The notes below the pieces were generated by a model. The model made no database searches and was not told where the DNA came from. It worked only from the letters and a program-made list of their open reading frames with translations. From Yuukianura sp. NJ FZ-2021 (lineage: Eukaryota), in contig CM102286.1 in the NCBI GenBank assembly GCA_046563655.1, positions 7,936,001 through 8,000,000 of the forward strand: DNA of 64,000 nucleotides. Reading direction: 5' to 3'. The position numbers and the translations under genes were made by a program. This document shows positions 1,323 to 64,000 of the stretch, in pieces; position 1 is the first letter of the stretch, and every line of letters begins with the position of its first letter.

Positions 1323-4300
1323 CCAAAAGACCTCCGGTTGAGGAGACGTCTAACTTCCTGCAGTCGCTAATTGCGAGTCATGGACCGAACTACCTGGAGA
1401 AGCTGTTCGGTGCCAAAGCACGGGATGCCTTGGCTCCCTTGGGCGGAGTGGAGAAAGTCGCTATTGCATTATCAGGTGAGCCAACTTTCACCAAAGTCAC
1501 TTCTAATTTCTACTTTGGAACCCATTTGGTGTCTTTGCTTCTCCTCGTATCTTCCCATAAGGTTTAAAGTCCATCAACTGGAGGACCTGAAGGGAAAGGA
1601 AAGTAACCTAACCCTATAGTTTGATGTACTTCTAACTTAGCGTAACAAGACAAAGGGGAAAGCGTAGTACAAAACTCCATTATCTTCCAGAAATGAATTT
1701 GTTCTTGGAAGAGGCCTGAGTGCCCTATTAATTTCCAAACTTTCACCCCACCTTACGCCCCCGTACTGGAGCACCACCAGATGCTCTCACCATTTCACGA
1801 ACAACGCCTTTCTCTCTCTAATGGTTTTTGATGTTTCTTTTTCAAATCAGAGCCTTTGTCTCTCTTTTTTGAACTTTCTATTTTAATGACGTCTAAAAAA
1901 ACACCATCAAATTGAAAAGCAAAATCGTGTTCGATTCTTTTTATGTGTCTTGTTTTTTGGAACAAAGAGTTCAATAATCTAAATCGAAATGACGGTTTCT
2001 AGATGGTCGGCTCGTGCCCGTCGTCACTAACGTAGACAAGCAGGGCCTTAGGCTGTTGACCTTAACATTGACTCCCAACGTCCGAATGTATGAAAGCTTT
2101 CAGACATTAAGGTATTTGGGTTGTATCAAACATGGTTCAATTTGTCGACTAATGAAATTTTGCTATTCCTTGGTTAAAAATAGTTTCCGTTTACTAAAAT
2201 CCAATATTCTTGTAGAATATTCCTTCCGGGCTCCTTGAAATTTTTCATATTTGATTTCTCATAAAGTGATGGAAAAGTTATTTTTCAAATTATGTTGTCA
2301 TTCAATTCATTCCAACGTTTGATGCTCAGGGAATAGAAAAATATGAGGTGTTGATTGGTGCCAGGAAGTTGATTAGCATCAGTTGAACCGCTATAGACTT
2401 TGGCCGAAAAGTTTTCCTTTGAAGCTACAAGGGATTTCTGCCGAGTAAAAGTCAAGGACATTTTCCACTTATAGGAATACTGGCCAGAGACTGACTTTTT
2501 CTTTGGTTGCAGCGGTGAAAGCACTGATGCGGAATGAGCATCTGGGTTTGCTATTTACTATATAGAACTTTTTCTCCAGAAGTGGAAATGAGAAATGGTC
2601 TCCCAATGGATTTAGCTAGGATTTGCTACCATTCTGGCACTACTTTCAATACCAGCAATAGAAAAACCAATTCTAACAGAAATAATCTTGGCCTTTATGA
2701 ACTTGCTTTTAATTTAAAAAAAAAAAGTTGAACGAAGTCGGAACAATGTTGCTTTTTTTTCTCCAACAAACCTGTACAATAAAAGGCTTAAAAAGGTAAC
2801 GCTTGTCCCGGATCAAATTAATTTCTTCCATTTAAAAAGCGTACTAAAGTTAATTAAAACAGCAGTTAGTTCATCATGGTCTGTCCTCTCATTGTTTTAT
2901 TCACTTTTATAGCCAATTTTTAGCTATTATGATCGAATATTGAATTTAAATAAGAGAAATCGATTCAATTTGGAAGTACACGATTTCACTTTGCAAAATT
3001 TGGTGACAATTGAAACAAAAACTGATGTTAGTATGTGATCAGTTGCAGTGAATAGTTTCTAATAGTTTGATTACTAATTTGACTTTTTTCATAAAAATCG
3101 AGAAATCGAACTTGAGCTTTTTTCCGATGTTTATATTATTTCCATTTGGTTTTTATATTGTTCTTTCTTGTATTGTTTTCAATTTCCTAACACAAACGAA
3201 ACAGACAAAGGGCATGTTGACTTATAATTTTCCGCTGCACAAGTTATTTCTATGTTGAAACAGCTCAAATTACGCGGCTGGGATGCGCCATAAAGTCATA
3301 GATTCACAGGATGTTTATTTTGCTTTTGAATTATTCAGCGCACATACAGTCCGAAGGCGGAAACAGACGAGCCGTGGTGCGGAAGTAAGTCGTACATGCT
3401 GAATAGAAAGTTCAAAAACTAACTTCAAATGAACGCACAAAAATAAAAAGAAGAAATAATTATAACGAAATATACTGGAAAACTACAGGTTGAAAATTTT
3501 AGTTATAACTCCAAGCTATCCTTCCTGTTTCTCCTTAAATCCTTTTCTTATTTCACAGTTTTCTCCTCTGCTTTGAAACTCGTTTTTTTTTGTTTTTTTT
3601 TTAACAAAAAAGTTCTGCGCGTCTTTTACACTGTCTGTTGATTTTAACAATTCAACTCATGTGCTCTTTTCTTGACAAAGAGGCTTTGTTCCTTTATTAT
3701 TTTGTTTGAAACTATAGAAAAGAATTGAGGGCAAAGAAAACAGTGAAAGAGAAAGTTGAAGCCAAAGAAGAACGACGATGCTTTTGAAGGCAAACTGAAA
3801 GTAAACATGGAAGTCAACCAGCGAATTCGCAGAACCATAGCCTAACTTCGTCGTATAGGCTGGATTGGATCATTATTCTGGAAGAGTGATCCGGAGGCGG
3901 ATGTCGCCACCCCTGTTATCATGATCTTTCGTATTTAGACGCCCGGCCCACCATACACCCAAATATTTATAAAACACAAAGCACGATCTCCGTGCCAGAT
4001 TTTAAATGGGCACGTTCTTCCTCCTCTCTTTTTCGGATGCTGGAGATGTTGGGATATTGCGAAATGGCTTTTGAGTGTCACACGTCGCTGAGTATTTCAA
4101 ATGAAGTTGAGAATTGTAACTGGATTGTGGAGATGGAATCTCGTTGAAATGAAATGTATTTCGAGAGTTGTCTAGTTTGGTTAGGCTTTTCTCCACTTTC
4201 TCCTTTTGTGACAGCTTCCAATATTTTCTCTTGAGACTTTCTCCATACCTTTTAGAGACAGCTAGTAAGATTTATTTTTTTATATTCACGCTTAGCTTAG

Positions 4301-16576: not shown

Positions 16577-19500
16577 TCACTTCTTTTTCGGCTGCGGCTG
16601 TGTCCCTTTAGCATTATTCGGATCCACAATTTCGCCCGTGACGTAAGTTCGACGGCGGAATCTGCAATAGCAATATTGAATGAAACCTTTGAAGAGGAAA
16701 CACTCTGAAATGGGTTTTTTGATTCCCGAAATTGGCAATTTGAATCAGCCCAATGAACCCGTGAGTCTTTGGTTGTTTTGAAAATGTACGCCACTGACCT
16801 GTGTTCGGTTGCAAATGGAGCGATCTCGGATGGTTGTGCGGCGGCTGGTTTGGCCTTTCGTAATTCTTGTAAACTAAGCAGAGACTTCTCAGAAGCGACA
16901 GCCGATTTGCGTGGATCTGCCGTAGGTTTTGGGGATTTGAAGTAACCTTAAAAAAAAGTGAAAACAAAATTTTCAATAACACCAATATGGTTGACAAAAA
17001 ATTGAAATCATGACAATAACTTTTGAATAGACCAAGACATTTTACTTTTGTCTTTGGATGTAACTTGAGCGGGTTGACCAACATTTGGTGTTGTGGGTTC
17101 CAAGCCTTCGATGAACACTTCTTCTTTTTCCTTGGCTTCATCTTCAGCGTCAGCTTTTGTTTTGGGCTAAAATAAGAAAAAAAAAAAAGTAAGTGGATTT
17201 TAGTTCCGAATTGCATTCTATTCCAAATTCAAGCGTCACAGGAACACAGGAAACAACAACATGTCAGTTTTTACCATAACAAAACTAAAATTGTCCCAGT
17301 TTTCTCGTTTGCACAATATGAGTGAACGTCAAATGCTAAAGGTTTACATTACATTCTACTCAAAAACCACACTAGAGTAATATTACAGCGTATCGAGTCA
17401 CTTTAGTAGATTGCCTCACTTTTGTATTGTCTATTTCTAGGTTTTCAATCATTTCAACTTTGTGGTGGTTAAATTCTACCGATCAAATGACTTCCATTTC
17501 GCCACGACATTTGAAAACTAATCAATATTAAATTAGTCTCAACCTCATCCATTTCGTCACTCCAATGCGTTCACAACCTGGAATGGAAAAATTCTTTGGT
17601 GAACCAATCAGAGTTTATAAACTCTCTAAACTACTTCATAAAATTTTCAACATGTTGAAGTCAAGCACGAACAGGAACACTGACTTTACTTTGCTTTCCT
17701 AAATTAGGAAGCGTTTCAAACTAGATCTGGTCAAACATTATAGTATAATACGATTTCATAAGCCGTGATAGCAACGAGAAATTAAGGCTAGCGGCTTCAC
17801 TGTTTAAAAGTCTAGCGATGTTATTATTATCAAGCTCAACGCGTAAGAGGATAGCGCGTGTGCATTTGATAGTCGTTTAAATTGTTTTTCGGGATTTCTT
17901 TGAAATTTTTCATGCAAAACACAAGCGGGGATACAAAGACTCTGTTTCCTTCAAATATGATTGAACCCTAACTTTGCAAGAAAATACAAAGAGCTTATTT
18001 TAGGCATGTTTTCTAGAATCAGTCGCTCTAGAAAAACAAAACAGGTTATAAGTGGGCGTAGAAAAAAATAACAATAACGTTGCCACTTGTTTGAACCATT
18101 TCATGTAAAAACGACCTGCCAAAGCTGAATTTTAAATTTTCAATCTCATCAAAAAACGCTATTCCAGAAATACGTCAGTAGAGTATTCGAGGGTGAGTTT
18201 ACCTCATTTATTTTTAGCTCAGCCGCGGGGCTAGTCGGGCGCAATATTGGGGAGGGGAAAAAGGGTCCCTCAAAATCTAAAAACGACAAAACATTGACAA
18301 AAATATCAACATCAAAAATATCAACAACAAAAATGTCAACACCAAAAATGCAACGTTTCACAAGAAGAGGTTTGCATACTTTGCCGCGGGGCTCGTCGGG
18401 CGGGGAAAACCCTCAAAGTCTAAAAAGATCGATTATCCCAGCAAATTCACCGTTTAACCTAACAAATTCAACGATTATCCTGAGAAATCCACTGATCAAC
18501 CTAAGAAATTCGCTACATAACCTATGAAAATGGTCGCCTACGCTAATCCCTTTGTTGTTCAAAATTGTTGAAAGCTGTCTCTAACCGTATGAAACCGTAT
18601 GTAGCCGTCTGTAACTGACTACGACGCTTCCGGAATCTATTTTTAGAACTCGCATCCACTACGCCACGTTCCCGGGCGCCGTGAAAACTTCAGAATTTGC
18701 TAATCAAAGTCTCCAGAAGTTCTCCAGTATCAAGACCGCTATCGAACTTTCCAGATCCCCCAATATTTTAAAAGATGGCTACAGAGTACAAAGTATTCAA
18801 GCCGAAACGCTTGAACACCTCATGGCTACAGTGTTGGATTTATCCAGCCAAGTCCTGGAGGAGCCTTTGGGCCGTGTGAGCCAGCCATTGGAAGCCAGCC
18901 CTTGGACGCCAGCCCTTGGACGCCAGCCCTCAATTCGCATGAATTTTTAACGTAATATAACAACTTCACTGCATAATACAATGGCGTCTCTGCATAATAC
19001 AATAGCTTCTCTGCATAATACAATGGCGTCTCTGCATAATACAATGGCCTCTCTGCATAATACCATGGCCCAGTTGTATAATACCACAACGTCATTACAT
19101 AATGCCGAGTTTGTTCTGTACAACATAGCGAGTTTGCGAGAGTAAAGTCTAGACTTTGTCAATGTCACGGGAACTTACTCCGTGAGTACACGTTGCAGAG
19201 TTCTTCCTCGGAATTATTTCCCGCAGGTAACCTTCCTTCGAGAGTCAGATCATCGTCAATACCATGGTCACGTTGTATAATACCATGGTCACGTTGTATA
19301 ATACCATGGTCACGTTGTATAATGCCATGGTCACGTTGTATAATACAATAACCTCACTGCATAATACAACATTTTTTTGTCAATTTTACATCCAACCACC
19401 ACCACCACCACCCCAACGTACCCATCCATGCAAAAGTATAAATAGCGACGTTGCCTAGCTCATCTCTCAGTTTCATTTCAGACGTTGAGCTGTGAAGACG

Positions 19501-22500
19501 TGAAGATTTTACCATCTGGAGCGGTTAGGCTAACAGTCATGGCGCAAAAATACATTCTTGTTCACGAAGACGACTACAACAGTCTACTGGATCAGCTTGA
19601 GACATATGAGTCTCAGCAAAACAGCCCTTGCAAAAGTTATTTTGGTGAAAAGCAAATCCATGATGGTTTTTTGCCTGATACTAAACCCGTACAATACTTA
19701 CAGCAACATACAATGAACATGCCTCAGAGCCGTGAGCCAAAGGAGCTTTATGAGCGTAATTCGCGAGATTCTGGGAACCACATTCCAATCGAACTTCAGA
19801 ATCATATGATGCAAACGGAATTACGCCAGAACTGGGAAAATCAACGGAAGCAAAGGGAAGGCTACGTCAATGTGAACGTTGTAAGCGATAGGCGGTTGAA
19901 TGATATAGCTACAAATCACTTTACCGGATGGGATGGTGGACGGGAAAAGTCAGCCAGAAAAACCGAAGACAGATATGACCGAATTACGCCCTGGTCAGAA
20001 AATCCAACGAATGATTGGTCAAATATTGTGGTAAAGCCGAATGACGCGCTCGAGATGCCATTTTCCAAGAGATTTAAAAAAGAATCGCAAATAGCGAAAG
20101 ATGAAACGCCGACAGCAGCACCGACAACTCCACCGTTTACTCTGGACCAGTTTTCAGCTGTTGGAAAACAGCTAGCACAATTTTTTGTAGCAAATGGTGC
20201 AACCTTTGCGAGCAATAGCGTTAGTCTGGGTGATGCCAACATACCCAGGAGCGAGTTCGAGGAGGGAATACGAAAACTTGCGGATGGAAGATATAAGTTG
20301 ACAAGACAAATGATTCCTGTCATCGTAGACTTTATGATTCAGACAGGCATTCCAAAATATCTGCTTCCGATCAGCCACCGAGGCTTGCTCGTTCGAGATG
20401 AACCTAAAAAGCTTTCTAGAAATCGCCCGCACGTGGAAAGTGATGTAGAAAATGAAGAAGAAGAAGATGACGAGGAAGACGAAGGGGATGAAGAAGGGGA
20501 AGAAGTCGAAGAAGAAATAGAAGAAGAGGAGGAAAACGAGGAAGACGAAGGGGATGAAGAAGGGGAAGAAGAGTATAGACAAACTGGAGGAGCTAAACCA
20601 TCACCAGGTCCCATACGACATTATCAATTTCTCCACCAGATGAACCAACACTCCCCTATTATACGCGAGACACTTCTCTCCACAGCGTCTCCTGGTCAAA
20701 TCCTTGGGTTACACAAATGTGTTCAGGACGTAATCCAGGGCAACATTCCTATTGAGGCCACCGTCAAAAATATCTTGAGACCGCATCGATATAAGATTAA
20801 ACGTGTTGCAGAAGCTAAAGGATCGATTGAAGACAAGAAAAAACTACTTATACAACACGGCGGGTTCCTGCCAGCTCTTCTCGCTGCCGCATTACCAATA
20901 CTTGGAGAGTTTCTCACTAGCGTAATTTCGTAGAATTATACACCTTTATGACTGTATATTCGTTAGATTCCGAATTTTCAAAATAAAAAAACTTGAAAAT
21001 AGAACTTTTATCGTGTAATGTGTTTATTCATTCATTCATTAGCATAGATTCGACAATTTTCAGGAAATATATTATCTCTAATGCGAAACAAATCATTTTG
21101 TCGTTGAGTTAAATCGATGAATAGATATCCATATTGCTTTGACATGCATTCCTTGTAGGCTTCTTCCATGGTTGTATTCTTCTTTCCTCCATTCATTTGA
21201 CGTCCAAGACAAGCTACAAATTGAGAGTCTCGCGGATTCTTCATTAGAGCAATGTAGTGACAGTTTGACGTGATTTCTTTCATATTCCTGTGAAAAAAGT
21301 TTTGCACAAGAATGATGAGTGATACGTTGCGGTGATGCGAAGTCCTTGTGAACGCAGCTCCAACTTCTCCGTTTTTGCCTGCTTCATGCATCAAATCGTC
21401 AAGGACGACGACTGACGGCTTGTCGGTTCCGTCATGCCATTTTTCAGGAAGTCCACGATGAAATTGTATAGTTGGAATCTTGGTCTTCAATTCTCCAAAC
21501 AGCGTAGGCTGGAACTCAGTGTAGCAATACATGATACGTTCCAAGGGCTCGTCAATATTAGTCTCGATAATTTCGTTTCGTCGTAGAAGTATTTGCTTCA
21601 CAAGGGTGCTTTTGCCGCTCTGAGTCATTCCACTGATGCACATAGTAAACGGTGCAACCAAATGCGGGTCAAACTTTTTCCCAGAGTGTACATGTCGAAA
21701 CATAGTAGATTTTTCCCGCTGATTCATGCATACCTGAAGCATTTTCGATACTGCGACGCTACTATGACAAGTTAACTTGTGTCGTTTCATTGCGTCCCTT
21801 CGTGAGAATTGTCTGCGGCAAATATCGCACGCTGTACTGGTTTCCATGATGTATAGTCCACAGAATCTTCACGTCTTCACAGCTCAACGTCTGAAATGAA
21901 ACTGAGAGATGAGCTAGGCAACGTCGCTATTTATACTTTTGCATGGATGGGTACGTTGGGGTGGTGGTGGTGGTGGTTGGATGTAAAATTGACAAAAAAA
22001 TGTTGTATTATGCAGTGAGGTTATTGTATTATACAACGTGACCATGGCATTATACAACGTGACCATGGTATTATACAACGTGACCATGGTATTATACAAC
22101 GTGACCATGGTATTGACGATGATCTGACTCTCGAAGGAAGGTTACCTGCGGGAAATAATTCCGAGGAAGAACTCTGCAACGTGTACTCACGGAGTAAGTT
22201 CCCGTGACATTGACAAAGTCTAGACTTTACTCTCGCAAACTCGCTATGTTGTACAGAACAAACTCGGCATTATGTAATGACGTTGTGGTATTATACAACT
22301 GGGCCATGGTATTATGCAGAGAGGCCATTGTATTATGCAGAGACGCCATTGTATTATGCAGAGAAGCTATTGTATTATGCAGAGACGCCATTGTATTATG
22401 CAGTGAAGTTGTTATATTACGTTAAAAATTCATGCGAATTGAGGGCTGGCGTCCAAGGGCTGGCGTCCAAGGGCTGGCGTCCAAGGGCTGGCTTCCAATG

Positions 22501-25500
22501 GCTGGCTCACACGGCCCAAAGGCTCCTCCAGGACTTGGCTGGATAAATCCAACACTGTAGCCATGAGGTGTTCAAGCGTTTCGGCTTGAATACTTTGTAC
22601 TCTGTAGCCATCTTTTAAAATATTGGGGGATCTGGAAAGTTCGATAGCGGTCTTGATACTGGAGAACTTCTGGAGACTTTGATTAGCAAATTCTGAAGTT
22701 TTCACGGCGCCCGGGAACGTGGCGTAGTGGATGCGAGTTCTAAAAATAGATTCCGGAAGCGTCGTAGTCAGTTACAGACGGCTACATACGGTTTCATACG
22801 GTTAGAGACAGCTTTCAACAATTTTGAACAACAAAGGGATTAGCGTAGGCGACCATTTTCATAGGTTATGTAGCGAATTTCTTAGGTTGATCAGTGGATT
22901 TCTCAGGATAATCGTTGAATTTGTTAGGTTAAACGGTGAATTTGCTGGGATAATCGATCTTTTTAGACTTTGAGGGTTTTCCCCGCCCGACGAGCCCCCG
23001 CGGCAAAGTATGCAAACCTCTTCTTGTGAAACGTTGCATTTTTGGTGTTGACATTTTTGTTGTTGATATTTTTGATGTTGATATTTTTGTCAATGTTTTG
23101 TCGTTTTTAGATTTTGAGGGACCCTTTTTCCCCTCCCCAATATTGCGCCCGACTAGCCCCGCGGCTGAGCTAAAAATAAATGAGGTAAACTCACCCTCGA
23201 ATACTCTACTTACGTCATTCCAAAATCTTTAACAATTGAACCAAGAAGACCAAAATCGTAGACGGGAAGACTGGAAGACTATAGAATCGTAGGTGGAAAT
23301 GGGAGCAGATGCCTTACCGCTTTGTCTCCAGCAAATCGAATCCCGATCTTCCTCATGGCAGACATGGCTTCATCGATTGCATTCAACACGTCACGGTCAG
23401 TTTCATTTTCCCGGAGTCGCATTGCCGTTTCATCCAATTTTTGCAATAATTTATCATCGTCGGATCTCTGCAGTGTATTTTTCATGTCGGGCATCATGTT
23501 AGACACTTTCATTCTGACATTGGCCACGGCATCGTCTAAAAAACAAAACAAAAAAACAGTGACCTAGAAAATTTTAATTCTTTCAACACAATCCCAAACC
23601 GGGTTGCACTTAATGTTAATCGTTCATCTTTACTTAAAAACGCTTTAAAATAACATGTGCCGAATATTTTCGCGTTACCGGCCATTTGTAGTGTCTGGTC
23701 AAAAAAATGTTCGCGAAAATACTTTCGTGAAAAAGTGTCGATGATTTTCCGTGACATGTATAGAAACAGCATGCGGTCCTGGACGCTCTTCCCTTTGGCG
23801 AAACCTGTACAAAGGGCAAAAACAAATTAATGTGAGGAGGACAAAACATTGGGGAATAATTCTACGGTTGCATCAAACACACTCCAACATTTCCTCCAAT
23901 TTCAACATTCCCTACACTTTCCTTGTCATTCTGAGCAAAAACTTGGAAAAAGCCCGGGATGTGCCGGGAATCCCTGGAGTGTCGTTCGCAGAGAGCAGGT
24001 TGGTTGATTAGACGGATGTCCTAGGTTGTTGTCAGAGATGTGGCAATGAAAAAGGACTAGAATAATACTAAGGCAGCACGTCGCAAACTGAAACTTTTCC
24101 TGCCCGCCCACATCCTGTATACGTGGGCCCTCCAAAAACTTCTGTCATTGGAGCTGAAGTGTCGAGCACAAACGTAACGACAAAATAGCTTACGGAGATA
24201 AAACTTTTTGGTCCTGGAAAATGAAATGGAAGGAAACAAAGCGCAAAAGTATGAGGGGAGAATCGACTCATAAATGCACCTAACACACACAAGAACAACA
24301 TGCACACACACAACCAAATGTTACACTTTTCACACGTCTAACACGTTACACACACGTCTACCACTTTCGCACACGTCTACTACTTTCGCACACGTCTAAA
24401 AGTGTTACTTTCCGCACACCTCTAAGACTTGCATTTCACACACCTCTAAGACTTGCATTGCACACACCTCTAAGACTTGCATTGCACACACCTCTAAGAC
24501 TTGCATTGCACACACCTCTAAGACTTGCATTTCACACACCTCTAAGACTTGTATTTCTCACACGTCTAAGGATTTTGTTCTCACACACCTCTAGACTTTG
24601 TTTTCTCACACAAGAACAACTCTCTCCGCCTACTTTTTTTGTTCGCCTCATCACGTGGTCTGCAGCGAGGGAATCCCACTTGAACACAGATATTTATCTG
24701 GTCAGACCCTGTTCTTTGTGTACGAAATCGTTTGTTTTCGTAAGTGGAGTTACCGACTTATTAATTATTACCGACGGATTATTTAGTATCACCATGGATC
24801 TCACATGACAACGTGTATTAAACCTATTAGACGAACTGAGGAGCGCGATTACATCTCCAAATACAAACAGTGGAAACATGAGAATGTTATAATCATAGTA
24901 CAGAGTAACCCCTAAGTTAGCAAAACAAATCCCTCCCCTTTTTCAGCGGCGGGTACCGTAACAGTTCAAAAAGGAGCGAAAAGGTTGCCGTTGTAAATTT
25001 TTTGTTGACAAACTGATAAGAGTAAAGATAAGAATAACCTCACACTGGAACTTTACGATAACAAGGCGGTGCGTTTTTTGAATCTAACCAATAAGAGCGA
25101 TTTGCTAACTCAGGGGTAACTCTGTATAACTGCTTAATGTAATAATTGCGTCGTCGCGATTTAAGCTACCAAGGTTCAAAGCCTTATTTAAGCGAGAGTG
25201 GGTAGCCTTTGAAATTAAATTTTCATAACTTTTGACTTGGACCAGCAAGAAAGCTACAAATTTCTTGAAACATCCTTTAATATAGAAGCTTTAAGTGTAC
25301 AAAAGGATTTCAGAATCTGGACAGTCGTTTTTTGGCAGCAGTAAAAGAATTGCACTTGACGAATTTATATCTTAAATGAAATTAAATTGTCATAACTAAT
25401 AAATGAACACAATTTCCAACGCAACTGATCACAATGCGAATCAGTTCGAGATCGTCAGAATTAGTCATAGTGATTACTGTACTGTTTGTTCAGTTGTATG

Positions 25501-32581: not shown

Positions 32582-35500
32582 CTACAGAGAAAGAAATGTA
32601 ATTTCCTCGGAAGGTCCACTCTCCCCGGCTTTTTGTAGAGTGACATTTATCCCGGGCAGGGTGGCCGATCCAAGGCTAATGGCAGGGAGGACTTGTGTAG
32701 TCTCTATGGTCTGATGTCCAATCTGGCCATCTGAACCTTGAGCTAAAACAAAGGTTGGAGTCAGAATAGAGGGTTGATACAATGGTCCAACAGTAGTAAT
32801 AATATTGGTGGAAGCTTGAGTCTGTTGTTGAAGAGGATGTCGCACGTCGGCACTGCTGCCGTCAGCGGCTACTGGGTACACAGGCGTCGGAGTAACAATG
32901 ATGGGCGTTTGAATTCGGGTAGGCCTCGTCAAAGTGAACGTTGTCGTGGTGTTGGAGGGGTTGAAAGCCCTTGGTCTTACAATTCTGGGTAGGTTGTAAG
33001 TGGGTGCATGAGCGAGCTTACCTGGGCTAACGACTGCTGACTTCGCTGCCACAGGTTGTGATGAATTCACAGTTGCAGTTGGAGTGCCAGTGACGTATAC
33101 AGTTTTCCCTTTGACCTTCATTCCAGCTTCCAGCATTTTGATCTTATCTTGAAGTCTCGACTCCCGCTTCTCCACCATGGACAACTCATACTTCAACTTC
33201 GTCTTTTCTCTCAGGTGATCTTGTATTTGTAGTTGGAGATGTACTGGATCATCCTTCGGCAAACTCCGGATTTGTTGGACCACGTTTGGATCGGTGGAAT
33301 TAAGAGACAGGCCGCTTTTTCTTGCCATAAGTGCTTGCTTTAAAGCTATGCACGGCCGACATTTGTTGTTGTTCAAGTTAAGTCCCTCACAATTCTTGGC
33401 AAACCAAATGCATTCAATTTTTCTTCCAACGGGGGATGGCTCCATACTGTCAAACTGTGACCAGCCTTCGCACACTTTGAACGCCGACAAATCCAAAATC
33501 ATCTCCTGCAGTTTGTATAACGAGTCCACCTTATTTCCAGTTTCGTTGAACATTTGCGTGAAATCAGACCCATTTGCTTCAACCTTGAATGTCAAATCTT
33601 GACGAATCTGCAATAAAAACAAACAAAACTAATTCAAAATCTCCACCGTGAAGTTAATTTTCCATTGTACACGAAAATCCAATACCTTTATACTGCGTCG
33701 AACCATCAGGCGTTCTAGTCGTGACACAATTTCCGCAATAAAAATACATCTTGTCTTCAATTCCTTGTCGACAATCATTCGGAACATCCAGAATTCGGCT
33801 TGCGGTAGTTGGATTCTCTCTCTGGTATCGTATATGTACTGCAAGTTGTACCCGGCGTCAGTGATCTCAAGGATTTTCCCAGTCGGTCTCGGTTTAACAA
33901 CAGAAGCAGGACCGGGTTTTCTGACAGGCGCAGGCTTCTTGGAGTCCGTAGAGGGCATTTCATCATCATCATCATCAATTGTAACCGTAATGGGAGAGTA
34001 ATCTGGATCAGAATCGTATTCAATCTCATACCCATCCACAACTTCTACACGGCTTTTGGGTCCTAACGGCTTTCTACCTTTAGATGGTGCTGCACGACCT
34101 TTTCCAGTCATTACCCCCATTGTAAATGCTTGTTTCGGATAATTAGCGAAAATTGATGGAATGGCGTCTCCTGTTAGGATCTTGCCTTTAGGTGTATTCA
34201 TGATAAACTTTTTATCCTACGAATCAGAAACAAGCACTTGATTAGGATTACACTTTTCAGCATAATAATAAAAAAAAAATGATTATGCGGCTTACAAAGT
34301 GATCTTCGCACAGCAAGTGAACTCTGGGGTCGAATGGTGTTTTACTGAGGGCGGCTGCTGGAATATATCTCATCCAATCCTTGAGTTTGGCTTTAGTCAT
34401 CTGCGGCATTTTGAACAAAGTTGCGTTAGGATTATGATCACAGTACTCGATGAAGCAAGACTTCTCTCCTCTCTGACCGCCAAGCCCCGGAGCGATTCTG
34501 ACTGCCGCATAGCCTGCTGGGAGTTTAACCTTGATTGGCACAGCCCTACTTGGAGTTACTGATCCCCCTCGCTTTCGTCCCCTTGTTGACGTTGAACCTC
34601 GAGGACGACCACGTTTTCCGCCTCTGCTTGGTCGTCGGCGACTATTGGATGGAGATGGCGGAGAATCAGCTGGAGGGCCAGCATCCAGGTAGTCTTCGTC
34701 AGCTTCATCACCACTGCCCGATGTCATAGATTCCCGTAGTCTAGAAGGAGGAATGATCTCCCGCTTCAAATGAGCTGGTCGTCCTCCAGATGGTGTTTTT
34801 CTGCCGAACTGATCTCCATCATCGGGTAGAATGGTCTCTGGTTCTAATTCCTTCAGCTTCTTATTAGGGCTGCAAGAAATAAAAGCGTGTCAGCGTGGGA
34901 ACGTGAAGGTGTAGTTGAATAAATAAAAAAAAGTTATTTCGTATTAGTTAGGTTAGAGACATCCTACAAATGAAACAATGAAAATAGGCAAAAAAAAGAA
35001 CAAACAAACTCACCCAGGTTTAGGTGGTGAAGATTTTCGTTTAGTTCCAGAAGTGTCAGCTTCGGTATTGTTATCATCGTTCGTCCCATTTAGTGAGTCA
35101 AAGCGAATCAAATCATCAAATGTTTGTGACCTATAATTAGAAAAATTATTAGTGTGGAATTACTTACATTGTCAATTACTTTTAAGGGAAACAATGAAAC
35201 ATAACCTAGGGTAATACGATGTGGTAATTGGTAAACGAAAACTGAAAGCATTATACTGATACACTTATAATTTGGCTATGCACGTTCTATACACTCTAGT
35301 CTCAAACAAATCAGTATCTATCAAGAAACAATTTTAGAACAGGTAAATACTATAAAGTCTGTATAGTACTTACTGGTACTCGTTAGTGTTAGGCTCGGAA
35401 TCATCAGCAGCACTGATGCTTGATTCCACAGATGCGACTGAAACTGGGTTAACATTTTCAGAGTCCATAACAGAATCTCTTGTGCCAGCATCGGTTTCCG

Positions 35501-37467: not shown

Positions 37468-40400
37468 CTAACGAGTATTTCCTCGTTCGTTGAACATTTG
37501 CGTGAAATCAGACCCATTTGCTTCAACCTTGAATGTCAAATCTTGACGAATCTGCAATAAAAACAAACAAAACTAATTCAAAATCTCCACCGTGAAGTTA
37601 ATTTTCCATTGTACACGAAATCCAATACCTTTATACTGCGTCGAACCATCAGGCGTTCTAGTCGTGACACAATTTCCGCAATAAAAATACATCTTGTCTT
37701 CAATTCCTTGTCGACAATCATTCGGAACATCCAGAATTCGGCTTGCGGTAGTTGGATTTTCTCTCTGGTATCGTATATGTACTGCAAGGTGTACCCGGCG
37801 TCAGTTTGAAGGATTTTCCCAGTCGGTCTCGGTTTAACAACAGCAGCATGATCATCGTCATCATGAATTGTAACCGTGGGAGAGTTATCTGGATCAGAAT
37901 CGTATTCAATCTCATCGCCATCTACAACCTCCACGGGGTTGTTGCATCCTAAGGGGTTTTTACCTTCAGTTGGTGGTGCGGGACCACTTCCAGGCATTAC
38001 CTCCATTGTAACTGCTTGTTTCGGATAATTAGCGAAAATTGATGGAATGGCGCCTCCTGTTAGGATCTTGCCTTCAGGTGTATTCAAGATAAACTTTTTA
38101 TCCTATGAATCAGAAACAAGCACTTGATTAGGATTACACTTTTCAGCATAATAATAAAAAAAATGAGTATGCGGCTTACAAAGTGATCTTCGCACAGCAA
38201 GTGAACTGTGGGGTCGAATGGTGTTTTACTGAGGGCGGCTGCTGGAATATATTTCATCCAATCCTTGCGTTTGGCTTTAGTCATCTGCGGCATTTTGAAC
38301 AAAGTTGCGTTAGGATTATGATCACAGTACTCGATGAAGCACGCGTGCTCTCCTCTCTGACCGCCAAGGTCTGGAGTGACTCCGACGTCCAAATAACCAA
38401 AGCCTTCCGGAGGATTAACGTTGATTGGCACAGCCCTCGTTGGTGTTGCTGATCTGGTTCGTTGCCGACCCCTTGCTGACGACGTTTTTCGTGGACTACC
38501 ACGTTTAGCGCCTCTGCTCCGTCGTCGACCTCGAGATGGGGATGGCGATATGTCATCCTCGTAGTCTTCGTCAGCTTCATCGCTACTGTGCGACGCCATT
38601 GACTCAAGCAGTCTAGAAGGAGGGACTATATTTTGCCTCAAACGAGCCGGTCGTCCTCCTGGTTTCGTTTGCCCGCCGACCTCTTCTCGATCATCGGCAA
38701 AAATGGACTTTGGTTCCAATCCTTTCAGCTTCTTACTCGGGCTACAAGAAATAAGAAGTGTGTTGAGGGAAGGTTTAGGTCAAGGTAACTAAACAAAATG
38801 ACATACCGCATTACTAAGGTAGTCTCACGAGCCGTTTTTTAATTGTTTTTTGCGAAAGTTATAGTGGGGTGGATTGTTTGTTTTTAAGTTTTTTTGTGCA
38901 AACGTTTTCCTTCGGTCGCAGTACAAAGCAAATTCATTCACTGTAACCACACAGTGTAACCACTCATCAAACATGTAGTTTAAATCGGTTTTAGGATTGG
39001 AAAATGGAATTATACAAGTTTTACGCTTATAGTTACTAAGAATTCATTGTTGCAACTCAATGGCAAATTAGTTGATTTTGTGCCAAATATCGAACACTGG
39101 TTACAAGTAACACATATTGTTACCTCAACCAACTTCAGCACGAATTTATCGCCTTGGATACCACCCCACTATAACTTTCGCAAAAAACAATTAAAAAACG
39201 TCTCGTGAGACTACCTTAGAAAGCGCATTGAGTTACCAAGGGGATTTTTCGTTTTTTTCCTTTTAACTAGAGTGGACATTTGGCATGTTTTAAACAAAAT
39301 TTTTGAAGCAAATCCAACAAGGCTCAAAGAGGCAAAAAAACCGCTTTCATCCGAAGCTTAAGCCCGGTTCTCATGATGAAATTCAAACGTTCATTTCTCA
39401 AACTTTCTGAAATTGTTAATAAACAACAGTTAAAAGGATTATTCTGAAAAAAATCTGCCCAATGAAAATGATGCACTAGCAAATTCAAATGTTCATTTTT
39501 CAAAATTTCAAAAAATCTTCATCAAAATGTTAGAAACAGGGTTTTTGAGATTTGCCAAAAATTTACCAAGATTTGCCGAGCAATTAAATTATGTTTTATC
39601 AAATTTCATCAAAGATATGATATAATGCACATCAACAATTTAAAATTTAAATTTGCATTAAAATTCTTTGCAGTTCACAGAACACTTTATTTCCCTGTTT
39701 CTAACATTTTGATCCAGATTTTTTGAAATTTTGAAAAATGAACATTTGAATTCGCTAGTGCATCATTTTCATCGGGCAGATTTTTTTTTTCAGAATAATG
39801 CTTTTAACTTTTGTTTATTAACAATTTCAGAAAGTTTAAGAAATGAACGTTTGAATTTCGTCGTGAGAACCGGGCTTAAGCTTCGGATGAAATCGGTTTT
39901 TTTGCCTCTTTGGATTTGCTTCAAAAATTTTGTTTAAAACATGCCAGCCAAATGTCCACTCTAGTTAAAAGAAAAAAACCAAAAATCCCCTTGGTAACTC
40001 AATGAGAAAGCGCGTATGCTTTTTGTTTAGTTGCCTTGGTTTAGGTGAATTAAAATAAAAATATATGAATTTCGTAATAATGGTGAAGGAAATCCCAAAA
40101 TGAAATAAATGAAAATTCGCAATCGCAGGCACTCACCCAGGTTTCGATGGTGGTGGAGGTTTTCGTTTAGTTCCAGTGGTGTCATCGTCGGCATTGCTAT
40201 TATCATTCGGAACAGTTGGTGAGTCGCAGGGAATCAAGTCATCAAAAGTTTGTGATCTATAATTAAAAAAAAACATTAAACATGAACGTTAACAAAAACA
40301 CAATGACAACTAAGCGTGTCGTGGTTAAATCAACCAAGTGTTTTTTTTTTAATACAAACCTGGTTTAAATGAAATGCCGAAATTAGCAAGGAAAACGGGA

Positions 40401-61669: not shown

Positions 61670-62268
61670 TTTAAATCCGAAAGCAGTGTGAGACAGTCAG
61701 TAAGGCATACTTGGCTAAAAATACTGCCCGTATGAATAATAGATGCCGAATCATCTATCAATTATTCGAGGAGTCTGACTAATTTACCGCAATACGTGTG
61801 TACAAGTTTAGTGAACCTTCGGTGAATATTTCAGTTTGAAGTTATGCAGTTTGTATTTAGAAAGTTATGAAACATGAAACAGGGTGGAGGGTGACGAAAA
61901 TACTTGTGGCTGTATGGACCAAATTAGTTTTAAATTGACTAACATATATGCGGTTGTTTGATTGGGAAAACCCAAGACGAAAAGACGATGGAAGGCTGCG
62001 TCTGACGATGTCATTTGTAGAGTAATTAAAGAAACTGCTCTATATAGATCCGCAAGAAATCTAAATTCACAATTTAATTGAAGAAATGCATGATTGCGGT
62101 AACCTTTTCTTCAAGCTAGTGACCAAAATGAACGTTCATTTAGTATGCCATATTGACAAAAGAAAACGCTAAACCTGCAGGCGTCGTCAATTCTTCCGCT
62201 TAATAGTGGTAATAAGGTTGAATTTCGGGAACAACAAGTGCCGACCTCTGAGTCCATATCTCAATCTC

Positions 62269-63421
62269 TTATTATAATAGCGAAGCTATTATTATAAAAG
62301 TGGTTTGTCTGTCCGTCTGTCCGTCTGTCCGTCCGTCCGTCTGTCCCGGAAAACATTAGAACGATTTTCTCCGGAACTATTGGACCAATTTCAACCGGGT
62401 TTTCACCAGTGACCATGTCATGACCCGGACCTATTCACTATTGAATATGACCCCCGTGGGTCAAATGCTTCCGGGTCAAAGGTCAAGGTCAACCGGTTTC
62501 ATCCCCGGTAACCCGGAAAATGACCTCTACAAAAGTTGTTCATCTCATCGAGACCAACAACTTTTGTGTACATCACTTGACCCCAAGTGACCTCCTTCCG
62601 GGTCAAAGGTCAACTTTTCAATTTTACATCCTGCTGTGAGGGAAGCTGTGGATCCACCACCATTCCCACGGGGGGGACCTGAAGGTGGGAAAGTGGGGTG
62701 AACACACCCCCACTCCCCCCGGGGGGGGGCGGGAAAGTGGGGGAACACACACCCCACTCCCCCCAGGGGGAGGGGACAGTGGGGGGAACCACCCCCTCTC
62801 CCCCCGGTGGGGGGCGGGACAGTGGGGGGAACCACCCCCTCTCCCCCCGGGGAACCACCCCCTCTCCCCCGGGGAACCACCCCCTCTCCCCCCGGGGAAC
62901 CACCCCCTCTCCCCCGGGGAACCACCCCCTCTCCCCCCGGGGAACCACCCCCTCTCCCCCGGGGAACCCACCCCCGCGCTCCCTGGGGTGCGGAGCAAAA
63001 AGTGCGGGGAACACCCCCACTCCCCCTGGGGGGCGGGAAATTGGGGGAACACCCCCCGCGCTCCCTGTGGTGCGGAGCAAAAAAGTGCGGGGAACACCCC
63101 CACTCCCCCTGGGGGGCGGGAAATTGGGGGAACACCCCCCGCGCTCCCTGTGGTGCGGAGCAAAAAAGTGCGGGGAACACCATCACTCCCCCGGGGGGGG
63201 GGGGGCGGAAAAGTGCGGGGAACACCCCCACTCTCCCGGGGGGGGCGGGAAAGTGGGGGGAACACACCCCCATTCCCCCGGGGGGGGGCGGGAAAGTGGC
63301 GGGAACACTCCTCCACTCCACCGAGCGGGGGGGGGGGCGGGGGAAAGTGGGGGGAACACATCCCCTTCGGGGGGCCCTATCTTCGCTATTATCATTATGG
63401 GCGGTTTACAACCGGTTTATT
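62269..63421 (+). mobile_element. Helentron-associated/DINE-1-like element with expanded G/C-run minisatellite (~62680-63375)
   Basis: Sub-TIR ATAATAGCGAAG / CTTCGCTATTAT, (GTCY)n microsatellite, core ATGACCTCTACAAAAGTTGTTC shared with 40464-41243, 3' CGGTTTACAACCG stem-loop. Confidence 0.7.
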
Positions 63422-64000
63422 TCCTTTCAACACCTACGGAAACGGAACCGTCTGAATCAAACTCATGTCATGTACCATTGTGCAACAGTGCATGTACGAG
63501 TACGTGCATTGCATTTAAATCTTCGATATCTCCTCTCGAGTCAACTTCTGGTGGGTAAACCTGTTCCAGTTCCTCCTTCATTCCAGTGTTTAGTGTAGAA
63601 TTCGCTGGAGGTCTGGTTCCTGTTTACCATCCACCACTTTTGTTGGATCCTCTGTGCATCCGATTTTTGAAAACCTGGACAGACGGCACGGCGACAACGA
63701 GGCAGGATTTAATCTGGAGTGTTGTACATAAAATCCGGAACTCACGTTAATCGTATTGACTGGAGTTAAAACCTTCTGAGCTGACGACATCACGTTGAAC
63801 AGCACCATATAGTAGTGGCGGCAGATCTCACGTCGTCTGGTTGGTTAGTTTGTCAACGTAATTCCATTAGCGTATAAAGGTTAGGTTGCTGTATACTGGA
63901 ACTGGAAATGAACAATCATCGTTTTGTTTGCTAGATAGAGGGAACAGCTGGACTTCAACACACACAAGAGTCGCTTCTCTTCCTTGTCTTTGATTGAAGT

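Follow-up and report, generated by a model that had tools for sequence, protein, structure and literature searches.

Can the packaging motor of a mobile element carry with it the means to recognize the DNA that it should package? This question is raised by an open reading frame (ORF) of 271 codons in a 64,000-nucleotide stretch of the genome of Yuukianura sp. NJ FZ-2021 (assembly GCA_046563655.1, contig CM102286.1, positions 7,936,001 to 8,000,000; this whole stretch is referred to below as the window, and all positions are counted in it). The ORF begins with a C2H2 zinc finger, continues with an ATPase of the viral packaging type, and lies within a 5,034-bp element whose terminal inverted repeats (TIRs) contain arrays of 21-bp units. 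It is unsettled whether Mavericks/Polintons form virions and how their own DNA would be selected; a packaging ATPase with a built-in finger would offer a concrete and cheap entry point, in the form of a single small domain and a set of candidate repeats that is already defined. In both identity and architecture, the ORF can be assigned with high confidence as an intact Maverick/Polinton (adintovirus-type) packaging ATPase of the FtsK-HerA/A32 family that bears a single N-terminal C2H2 finger. What the finger does is a more difficult matter, and several explanations are weighed below.

Finger and motor in one reading frame

The first 28 residues of the finger-ATPase, METSTACDICRRQFSRRDAMKRHKLTCH, show the spacing C7-x2-C10-x12-H23-x4-H28, F14 and M20 occupying the hydrophobic core positions, as in the classical C2H2 pattern. 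The original prediction had placed a C-x2-C-x3-F-x5-M-x2-H-x4-H finger at residues 7-28 ahead of a complete A32-like ATPase, and this description stands: the spacing is exact, Walker A and Walker B motifs occur in the same ORF, and the Pfam model Pox_A32 matches over its cut-off (E 6e-6, 26.4 bits against 22.8), within residues 143-213 only. The finger models of Pfam remain under their cut-offs, namely zf-C2H2_4 (E 0.0049, 17.9 bits against 27), zf-C2H2_6 (E 0.016, 15.7 bits against 25) and zf-C2H2 (E 0.03, 15.2 bits against 25.2), all three aligning to residues 6-30.

The ATPase domain keeps all five invariant and all 17 nearly invariant columns of a 120-sequence alignment, in which G78, K79, D150 and D151 are invariant. 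An AlphaFold2 model built on this alignment reached a mean pLDDT of 91.3 and predicts a beta-beta-alpha fold for the finger at residues 5-27 (strands 5-6 and 13-14, helix 17-27), the 10-residue block means over residues 1-30 being 85, 95 and 89. A second helix is predicted at residues 29-41, pLDDT falls below 50 at residues 40-55, and the motor-domain blocks of residues 61-270 score 94-98; in this model a short helix and then some 15-20 disordered residues would connect the finger to the motor. In a Foldseek search against the PDB the ten top matches were all chains of the STIV2/STIV B204 packaging NTPase, with 4kft_C as the best (E 5.8e-7, TM 0.56 on target). B204 (PDB 4kft, 4r2h) is thus the closest solved structure for the ATPase domain, but its sequence identity is 12-15%, it comes from an archaeal virus, and it has no finger. 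A PDB sequence search with the 120-sequence profile found generic P-loop matches only (KaiC, RecA, EccC), PHROGs returned zero matches for the finger-ATPase and for the neighbouring ORF1, and a scan of IMG/VR gave 53 pattern matches, none of them confirmed. For four copies of residues 56-271 the oligomer predictor gave a score of 0.00 and returned no verdict.

Compared with known proteins, the motor belongs to the same sequence family as the Maverick/Polinton (adintovirus 'FtsK') ATPase, sharing its Walker A and B motifs, an HHRN motif and the same neighbour gene as in full elements. It differs in the N-terminal finger, absent from most members, and in its setting, a 5-kb element without the other core genes where the neighbour is convergent, not tandem. 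The finger shares with those of the Zif268 type the C-x2-C-x12-H-x4-H spacing, the F and L/M core, a helix of the form R-x-D-x-(L/M)-x-R-H and the beta-beta-alpha model, but it is single rather than part of a tandem array and, in this copy, scores below the Pfam cut-off.

The finger is not confined to this locus. A word-index search returned 76 proteins, most of them of 200-225 residues, covering 74-83% of the query and without its N-terminus; P0004, P0005 and P0009 cover 97% of it, and P0009 is named 'Poxvirus A32 protein/Zinc finger, C2H2 type' in one source, by automatic annotation. An exhaustive search of cluster representatives yielded 5,226 proteins at E<=1e-3, and among the 150 matches listed many with 33-40% identity align from query residue 3-7 onwards. 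When a finger was defined as C-x2-C-x12-H-x3-5-(H/C) N-terminal to Walker A (or N-terminal to residue 60 in three proteins without a located Walker A), it was present in 34 of 220 retrieved homologs, at 33-58% identity, beginning at residues 3-11 in 31 of them and separated from Walker A by 22-122 residues. The fusion is not special to this element. The original prediction had named a fusion common in ordinary Mavericks as a ground for abandoning its reading, and the recurrence down to 33% identity goes part of the way towards that ground. Because the motif recurs in this way, because the ORF at metagenome locus L028 passes the Pfam zf-C2H2 cut-off (33.5 bits against 25.2) together with a match to Adeno_IVa2, and because the model shows a beta-beta-alpha fold, the finger of the window protein is more than a chance pattern.

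Positions -1, +2, +3 and +6 of the helix are the base-contacting positions in Zif268-type fingers. With the window's finger included, Arg occupies -1 in 30 of 35 fingers and +6 in 34, and Asp occupies +2 in 18; at +3, 16 fingers have Asn, and the window's finger has Ala.

It had also been stated that A32-like ATPases are mostly stand-alone proteins, and this was borne out: 136 of 162 finger-less rows in the tree set start no more than 30 residues before Walker A, and of 80 metagenome loci only two, L028 and L071, encode a finger ahead of Walker A and in frame with it. Given this low count and the stop codons found upstream in L014 and L026, the absence of the finger in most relatives is mostly real. 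A FastTree phylogeny was built from 195 ATPase domains, after removal of 26 of 221 rows that had no Walker A match or fewer than 170 residues. For the 33 rows with a finger the tree requires 22 state changes, against 30.8 +/- 1.5 (minimum 25) in 500 label shuffles, so that the trait is clumped yet scattered. In P0002, one of the closest relatives, the N-terminus is an unrelated one of 73 residues, and the N-terminal module is therefore exchangeable. From these comparisons the finger appears to be a modular accessory in a minority of about 15% of the sampled ATPases (about one in seven) and no invention of this locus.

Some relatives show peculiarities of their own. Protein P0109 (719 residues) has four C2H2-like motifs (at residues 6, 33, 201 and 263) ahead of its ATPase, with Walker A at 331, as a multi-finger version of the fusion. 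At L028:1-568 the finger-coding 5' end of the ATPase gene is repeated as a direct duplication of 234 nt (93% identity, 334 nt apart). The finger-bearing ATPase on the L071 contig adjoins a 173-residue ORF (1707-2225, minus strand) matching Pfam TBP at E 3e-33, which could equally be a host gene; TBP-like genes are listed in related viruses of non-animal eukaryotes (PMC8502044). A second conserved motif, CxxCG..(F/Y).....(L/V)..H....C, occurs in many longer relatives (356-577 residues), about 250-360 residues in and C-terminal to the ATPase domain. Its carriers are P0087, P0125, P0130, P0183, P0186, P0198, P0202, P0204, P0101, P0124, P0134, P0182 and P0206, the last with a version ending in H, not C.

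No paper was found that describes a zinc finger on a Maverick, Polinton or adintovirus ATPase, the supplements covered being one file of PMC8502044, in the accessible part of which the terms 'C2H2' and 'zinc finger' are absent. The only Polinton paper found to contain 'C2H2' (PMC3671162) applies the term to other proteins. The fusion is thus unrecorded in the literature rather than unseen, since public protein sets contain it and one automatic annotation names it.

The carrier element and its terminal repeats

Exact mapping placed the element at 18177-23210, flanked on both sides by the 6-bp target-site duplication (TSD) TACGTC. Its ends, 5'-AGTAGAGT...ACTCTACT-3', are of the AGTAG type, a near but not exact match to the published (AGT)2//(ACT)2. 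A 6-bp TSD, long TIRs and ends of this type are given as hallmarks of Mavericks/Polintons in PMC3014272 and PMC8097293. The two TIR arms show no mismatches and two gaps totalling 15 nt (one 14-nt repeat unit and 1 nt). In public DNA runs X2 and X3, one contig each joins 18170 to 23211 and so lacks 5,040 nt, which equals the element together with one copy of the TSD (5034 + 6). This joint also makes it unlikely that the inverted-repeat structure is an artefact of assembly. The TSD and the empty-site allele show that the element has recently moved. It is polymorphic and probably multi-copy. Core contigs were deeper than flank contigs in all four runs (171-206 against 43-86 in X1 and 113-118 against 0-4.5 in X4, as word depth, which gives no copy number), and X4, which has a second organism label and comes from a second study, carries the core at about 98% identity. 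No second copy of the element lies within the window.

Only two ORFs of at least 150 residues were found in 18177-23210, the finger-ATPase and ORF1, and no ORF for a polymerase (protein-primed PolB, pPolB), rve integrase, capsid or protease occurs there. Since these genes are absent, the element is a non-autonomous derivative and not a Maverick proper; the Maverick identity originally assigned to it therefore holds as to derivation (TSD, TIRs, ATPase family) and fails as to completeness, and the class is very probably that of a non-autonomous Maverick/Polinton derivative of 5,034 bp. Intact vertebrate Mavericks measure 12.7-24.6 kb, with TIRs of 46-1,447 bp (PMC8097293). The far smaller size of the present element suggests that there are parasites of Mavericks which retain the packaging and not the transposition module, in contrast to ordinary deletion derivatives of DNA transposons, in which the reverse holds. 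Of the two parts of the finding, fusion and carrier, the second is the more unusual: a derivative reduced to a two-gene packaging module, for which an empty-site allele exists.

The full gene context is found at the loci of relatives, where Maverick-type gene content accompanies ATPases with 36-61% identity to that of the window. At L065 and L034, pPolB, the ATPase, a small ORF and an integrase with rve and chromo domains follow one another in this order, and L040 also has an adenain-like protease; among closer relatives (55-61% identity), the ATPase of L004 stands beside an integrase and that of L009 beside pPolB. A position beside double jelly-roll capsid genes, used as a mark of packaging ATPases, was seen only at relatives' loci and not in the window element.

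Arrays of 21-bp units had been predicted within the TIRs, and they are there. TRF reported 21-nt periods at 18969-19086 and 19258-19346, a wider row with a 63-nt period at 18953-19103, and further TIR arrays of 15-, 10- and 14-nt units together with another 21-nt array farther out. The core ATAATACMATRG occurs 14 times in the window, seven times in each TIR arm and nowhere outside the TIRs, where 0.02 would be expected by chance. As 21 bp correspond to two turns of B-DNA, the repeats present their sites on the same face of the helix, and for this reason the arrays are the obvious candidate sites for the finger. A target triplet read from the recognition code would be uninformative in the 21-bp units, a 3-bp site being expected by chance in most 21-mers. 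Two observations concern variation in the TIRs. At 18341-18428, 86 nt of the left TIR are replaced by 28 other letters in contigs of all four runs, as a structural variant of other copies. Differences also occur at mirror positions of both arms (19212 and 22160; 19372 and about 21994), as would be expected if the arms were kept identical, but the contigs cannot separate the arms and the pattern is not evidence.

Each of the two genes appears, from the letters upstream of it, to stand behind an identical promoter inside the TIR, with TCAGTT 32 nt downstream of TATAAATA as putative initiator and TATA box. The distance from the inner end of the TIR to the ATG is 30 nt for ORF1 and 17 nt for the ATPase. 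On the minus strand the first ATG past the putative initiator is that of the finger (A at -3, G at +4), which speaks against translation from a downstream methionine and would place the finger inside the translated product. In full Mavericks the ATPase and the small gene are in tandem, internal and on the same strand, but in the window element they are convergent. Given that the two convergent genes are each fitted to an identical TIR TATA/initiator, a simple or random deletion is an unlikely origin. The features are collected in Table 1.

Table 1. Features of the element and of its finger-ATPase gene, in window positions
Feature	Position	Strand	Basis
Left target-site duplication TACGTC	18171..18176	.	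Flank letters; empty-site contig joins 18170 to 23211
Left TIR, 1332 nt, begins AGTAGAGT; mosaic of 15-, 21-, 10-, 14- and 21-nt tandem arrays	18177..19508	+	Arm alignment, TRF
Distal 21-bp array, about 5-7 units, core ATAATAC(A/C)AT(G/A)G	18953..19103	+	TRF, motif count
Proximal 21-bp array, about 4-5 units, about 70 nt upstream of TATA box	19258..19367	+	TRF, motif count
Candidate ORF1 promoter: TATAAATA (19437-19444) and TCAGTT initiator-like motif (19467-19472)	19437..19472	+	Sequence reading
ORF1, 464 aa from first ATG	19539..20933	+	ORF list, homology alignments
Finger-ATPase ORF, 271 aa	21032..21847	-	ORF list, Pfam, homolog searches, AlphaFold2, Foldseek
Walker B VVVLDD, codons 146-151	21395..21412	-	Alignments; D150, D151 invariant
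Walker A GMTQSGKS, codons 73-80	21608..21631	-	Alignments; G73, G78, K79 invariant or nearly so
C2H2 finger, codons 7-28	21764..21829	-	ORF reading, Pfam, AlphaFold2, homolog motif count
Candidate ATPase promoter, mirror copy of that of ORF1, upstream of ATPase	21900-21935	-	Sequence reading
Right TIR, 1347 nt, one extra 14-nt unit and 1 extra nt	21864..23210	-	Arm alignment
Right target-site duplication TACGTC	23211..23216	.	Flank letters, empty-site joint

What the finger may do

The account of the whole locus that we consider somewhat probable is that of a Maverick packaging ATPase with a genuine finger as a DNA-targeting head, carried by a recently mobile non-autonomous derivative. The head would tether or load the motor onto element DNA near the ends, and the two-turn-spaced 21-bp arrays of the TIRs would be its candidate sites. 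The targeting role is a best guess that draws on analogy. Whether the finger binds DNA is evenly balanced, and a specific reading of the TIR arrays for packaging seems rather doubtful.

Two known systems give this proposal its shape. The gamma domain of FtsK, held on a flexible linker, reads KOPS and loads and orients the ring on DNA. It resembles the window protein in joining a motor of the same superfamily to a small sequence-reading domain by a linker, but it is a C-terminal winged helix on a bacterial chromosome translocase, whereas the window protein has an N-terminal C2H2 finger and belongs to a eukaryotic element. The adenovirus IVa2 protein serves as the functional model for a packaging ATPase that reads DNA. 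It recognizes the CG motif in the repeated A-elements close to the end of the genome, where it seeds the packaging complex, and it is also an activator of the major late promoter (PMC5033970). IVa2 is a packaging ATPase of the same viral lineage, and relatives of the window protein match Pfam Adeno_IVa2, but the window protein itself does not, and the DNA-binding domain described for IVa2 in that paper is bipartite (residues 79-98 and 421-449 in HAdV-C5) and has no zinc finger.

Several results weigh against the proposed targeting role. The finger of the window remains under the threshold of every Pfam finger model. Its contact residues are close to the generic C2H2 consensus, and they are common to elements whose ATPases are only 33-40% identical, which argues against an element-specific reading; Arg at -1 and +6 across such divergent elements fits general DNA binding better than the specific recognition originally envisaged. 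The finger is missing from P0001 and P0002, the nearest relatives at 74% identity, and the motor therefore works without one. A single finger reads 3-4 bp only and so cannot alone give site specificity. Packaging would need a helper, because the element is without capsid genes. The differences between copies point in the same direction: among those listed (53 further differences exist beyond them, and all counts given here refer to the listed ones), the five in the ATPase, E2D, R11C, M20L, E100K and S236L, are all nonsynonymous, as are 16 of the 20 in ORF1. No sign of purifying selection appears, and the pattern looks like neutral divergence of young copies. At finger position 20 the contigs of other copies have the canonical Leu, and Met is private to this copy.

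The other explanations are generally compatible with a packaging role and not exclusive of it. In one of them the ATPase, by virtue of its finger, would act as a transcription factor on the promoters of the element, binding the 21-bp arrays and regulating both convergent genes, as IVa2 does at the major late promoter. The arrays lie 70-480 nt upstream of the TATA/initiator in both arms, the finger residues are of the DNA-contacting type, and IVa2 itself combines a packaging ATPase with a transcriptional activator (PMC5033970). Their position would nevertheless suit host transcription factors or packaging signals equally well, and the window protein has no recognizable activation domain; such regulation seems unlikely, though it could coexist with a role in packaging.

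The element could also be a functionless relic, a decaying deletion derivative mobilized in trans through its TIR ends, in which the ORFs and the finger with them are open only because the copy is young. The mostly nonsynonymous differences described above agree with this, and the absence of mismatches between the TIR arms suggests a very young copy. Both listed coding indels are, on the other hand, multiples of three, and the ATPase has fewer listed differences per nucleotide than the N-terminal half of ORF1. In full Mavericks the retained genes are internal neighbours on the same strand (PMC8097293), yet here they are convergent, each beginning 17-30 nt past a TIR with an identical TATA/initiator, an arrangement for which random deletion is an unlikely source. 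We give little credence to the relic explanation.

Another possibility is that the finger reads no DNA and serves protein or RNA contacts or nuclear targeting, for instance by docking the motor to a capsid vertex or to a terminal protein. Single C2H2 fingers often serve protein contacts, the helix at residues 29-41 together with the basic residues could form a localization signal, and the variable linker among relatives implies that a precise geometry of finger and motor is not conserved. Against this stands the prevalence of Arg at -1, Arg at +6 and Asp at +2, the classic base-contacting set of the recognition code, and the explanation is regarded as quite unlikely. Very unlikely is the strong form of the original prediction, by which this element has specially acquired a finger that recognizes the arrays in its TIRs and confers cis-preferential packaging: the arrays do occur in the TIRs only, with a two-turn period, and the mini-element does retain its own ATPase though all else needed for a virion is lost, but a finger with very similar contact residues is present in the 34 finger-bearing relatives.

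A wider proposal builds on the targeting head. The 5-kb element might be a satellite of autonomous Mavericks that has shed its replication, integration and capsid genes and keeps, under TIR promoters, the finger-motor and a protein-X-like core or membrane protein, the finger loading the motor on the 21-bp arrays so that helper capsids take up satellite DNA. The two-gene packaging module with its empty-site allele supports a satellite-like lifestyle; the complete scheme is nevertheless highly improbable as it stands. The SaPI/PICI satellites of phages bring their own packaging-specificity protein, a small terminase. The likeness, by analogy only, is that of a small defective element without capsid genes which keeps its own packaging protein, but those satellites are bacterial and terminase-based. 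If the satellite proposal were true, the element would be a eukaryotic counterpart of packaging-redirecting phage satellites and would supply the first defined pair of packaging signal and reader for Mavericks. If the finger does not bind DNA, what is left is a domain combination not yet recorded, within a family that is already known.

The partner gene and the surroundings of the element

ORF1 converges with the ATPase gene, and the AATAAA signals of both lie within the 98-nt spacer between them. The protein consists of a fast-changing N-terminal part, a middle block in common with P0002, an acidic tract, and a C-terminal protein-X-like module of 105 residues with a hydrophobic tail. Residues 200-285 match the C-terminal part of P0002 (30% identity, E 9e-11), a protein in which the ATPase and this block are in one frame. 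In 18 of 80 loci the gene immediately following the ATPase encodes a small basic protein (about 107 residues), with which the last 105 residues of ORF1 can be aligned over the full length, the motif Q(K/H)GG-FLxALL and the hydrophobic tail being shared features. A search with the C-terminal 114 residues found one protein, P0221, at E 4.7e-9. The word-index search with ORF1, a query that has a long acidic low-complexity tract, gave none at E<=1e-3 among 8,000 scored candidates, and residues 185-300 had no usable match in the ESM Atlas. The Pfam model Adeno_PX did not match the window segment and matched two of eight homologous small proteins under the cut-off (E 1e-4 and 1.5e-3). In the adintovirus maps of PMC8502044 a PLA2X gene adjoins FtsK, and similarity to protein X is noted there for PLA2X-type genes; a conserved ORF 'pm' follows atp in vertebrate Mavericks, according to PMC8097293.

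The N-terminal third of ORF1 (19539-20040) holds 15 of the 20 listed differences of this gene between copies, 13 of them nonsynonymous, and thus changes much faster than the ATPase. Outside the element, 1.1 kb to its right, a 24-nt tandem array of the CACACCTCTAAGACTTGCATT type, with about 7-9 units, occupies 24364-24594. Two ORFs with THAP domains, just over the cut-off, are located on the minus strand at 34257-34769 (E 6e-5) and 38084-38719 (E 1.5e-5), each followed by further open frames (32582-34201 and 37578-38087, respectively), and may belong to another transposon family. The last part of the window (62001-64000) reaches a GC content of 0.54, against 0.34-0.43 elsewhere, and contains long overlapping open frames on both strands at 62545-63598.

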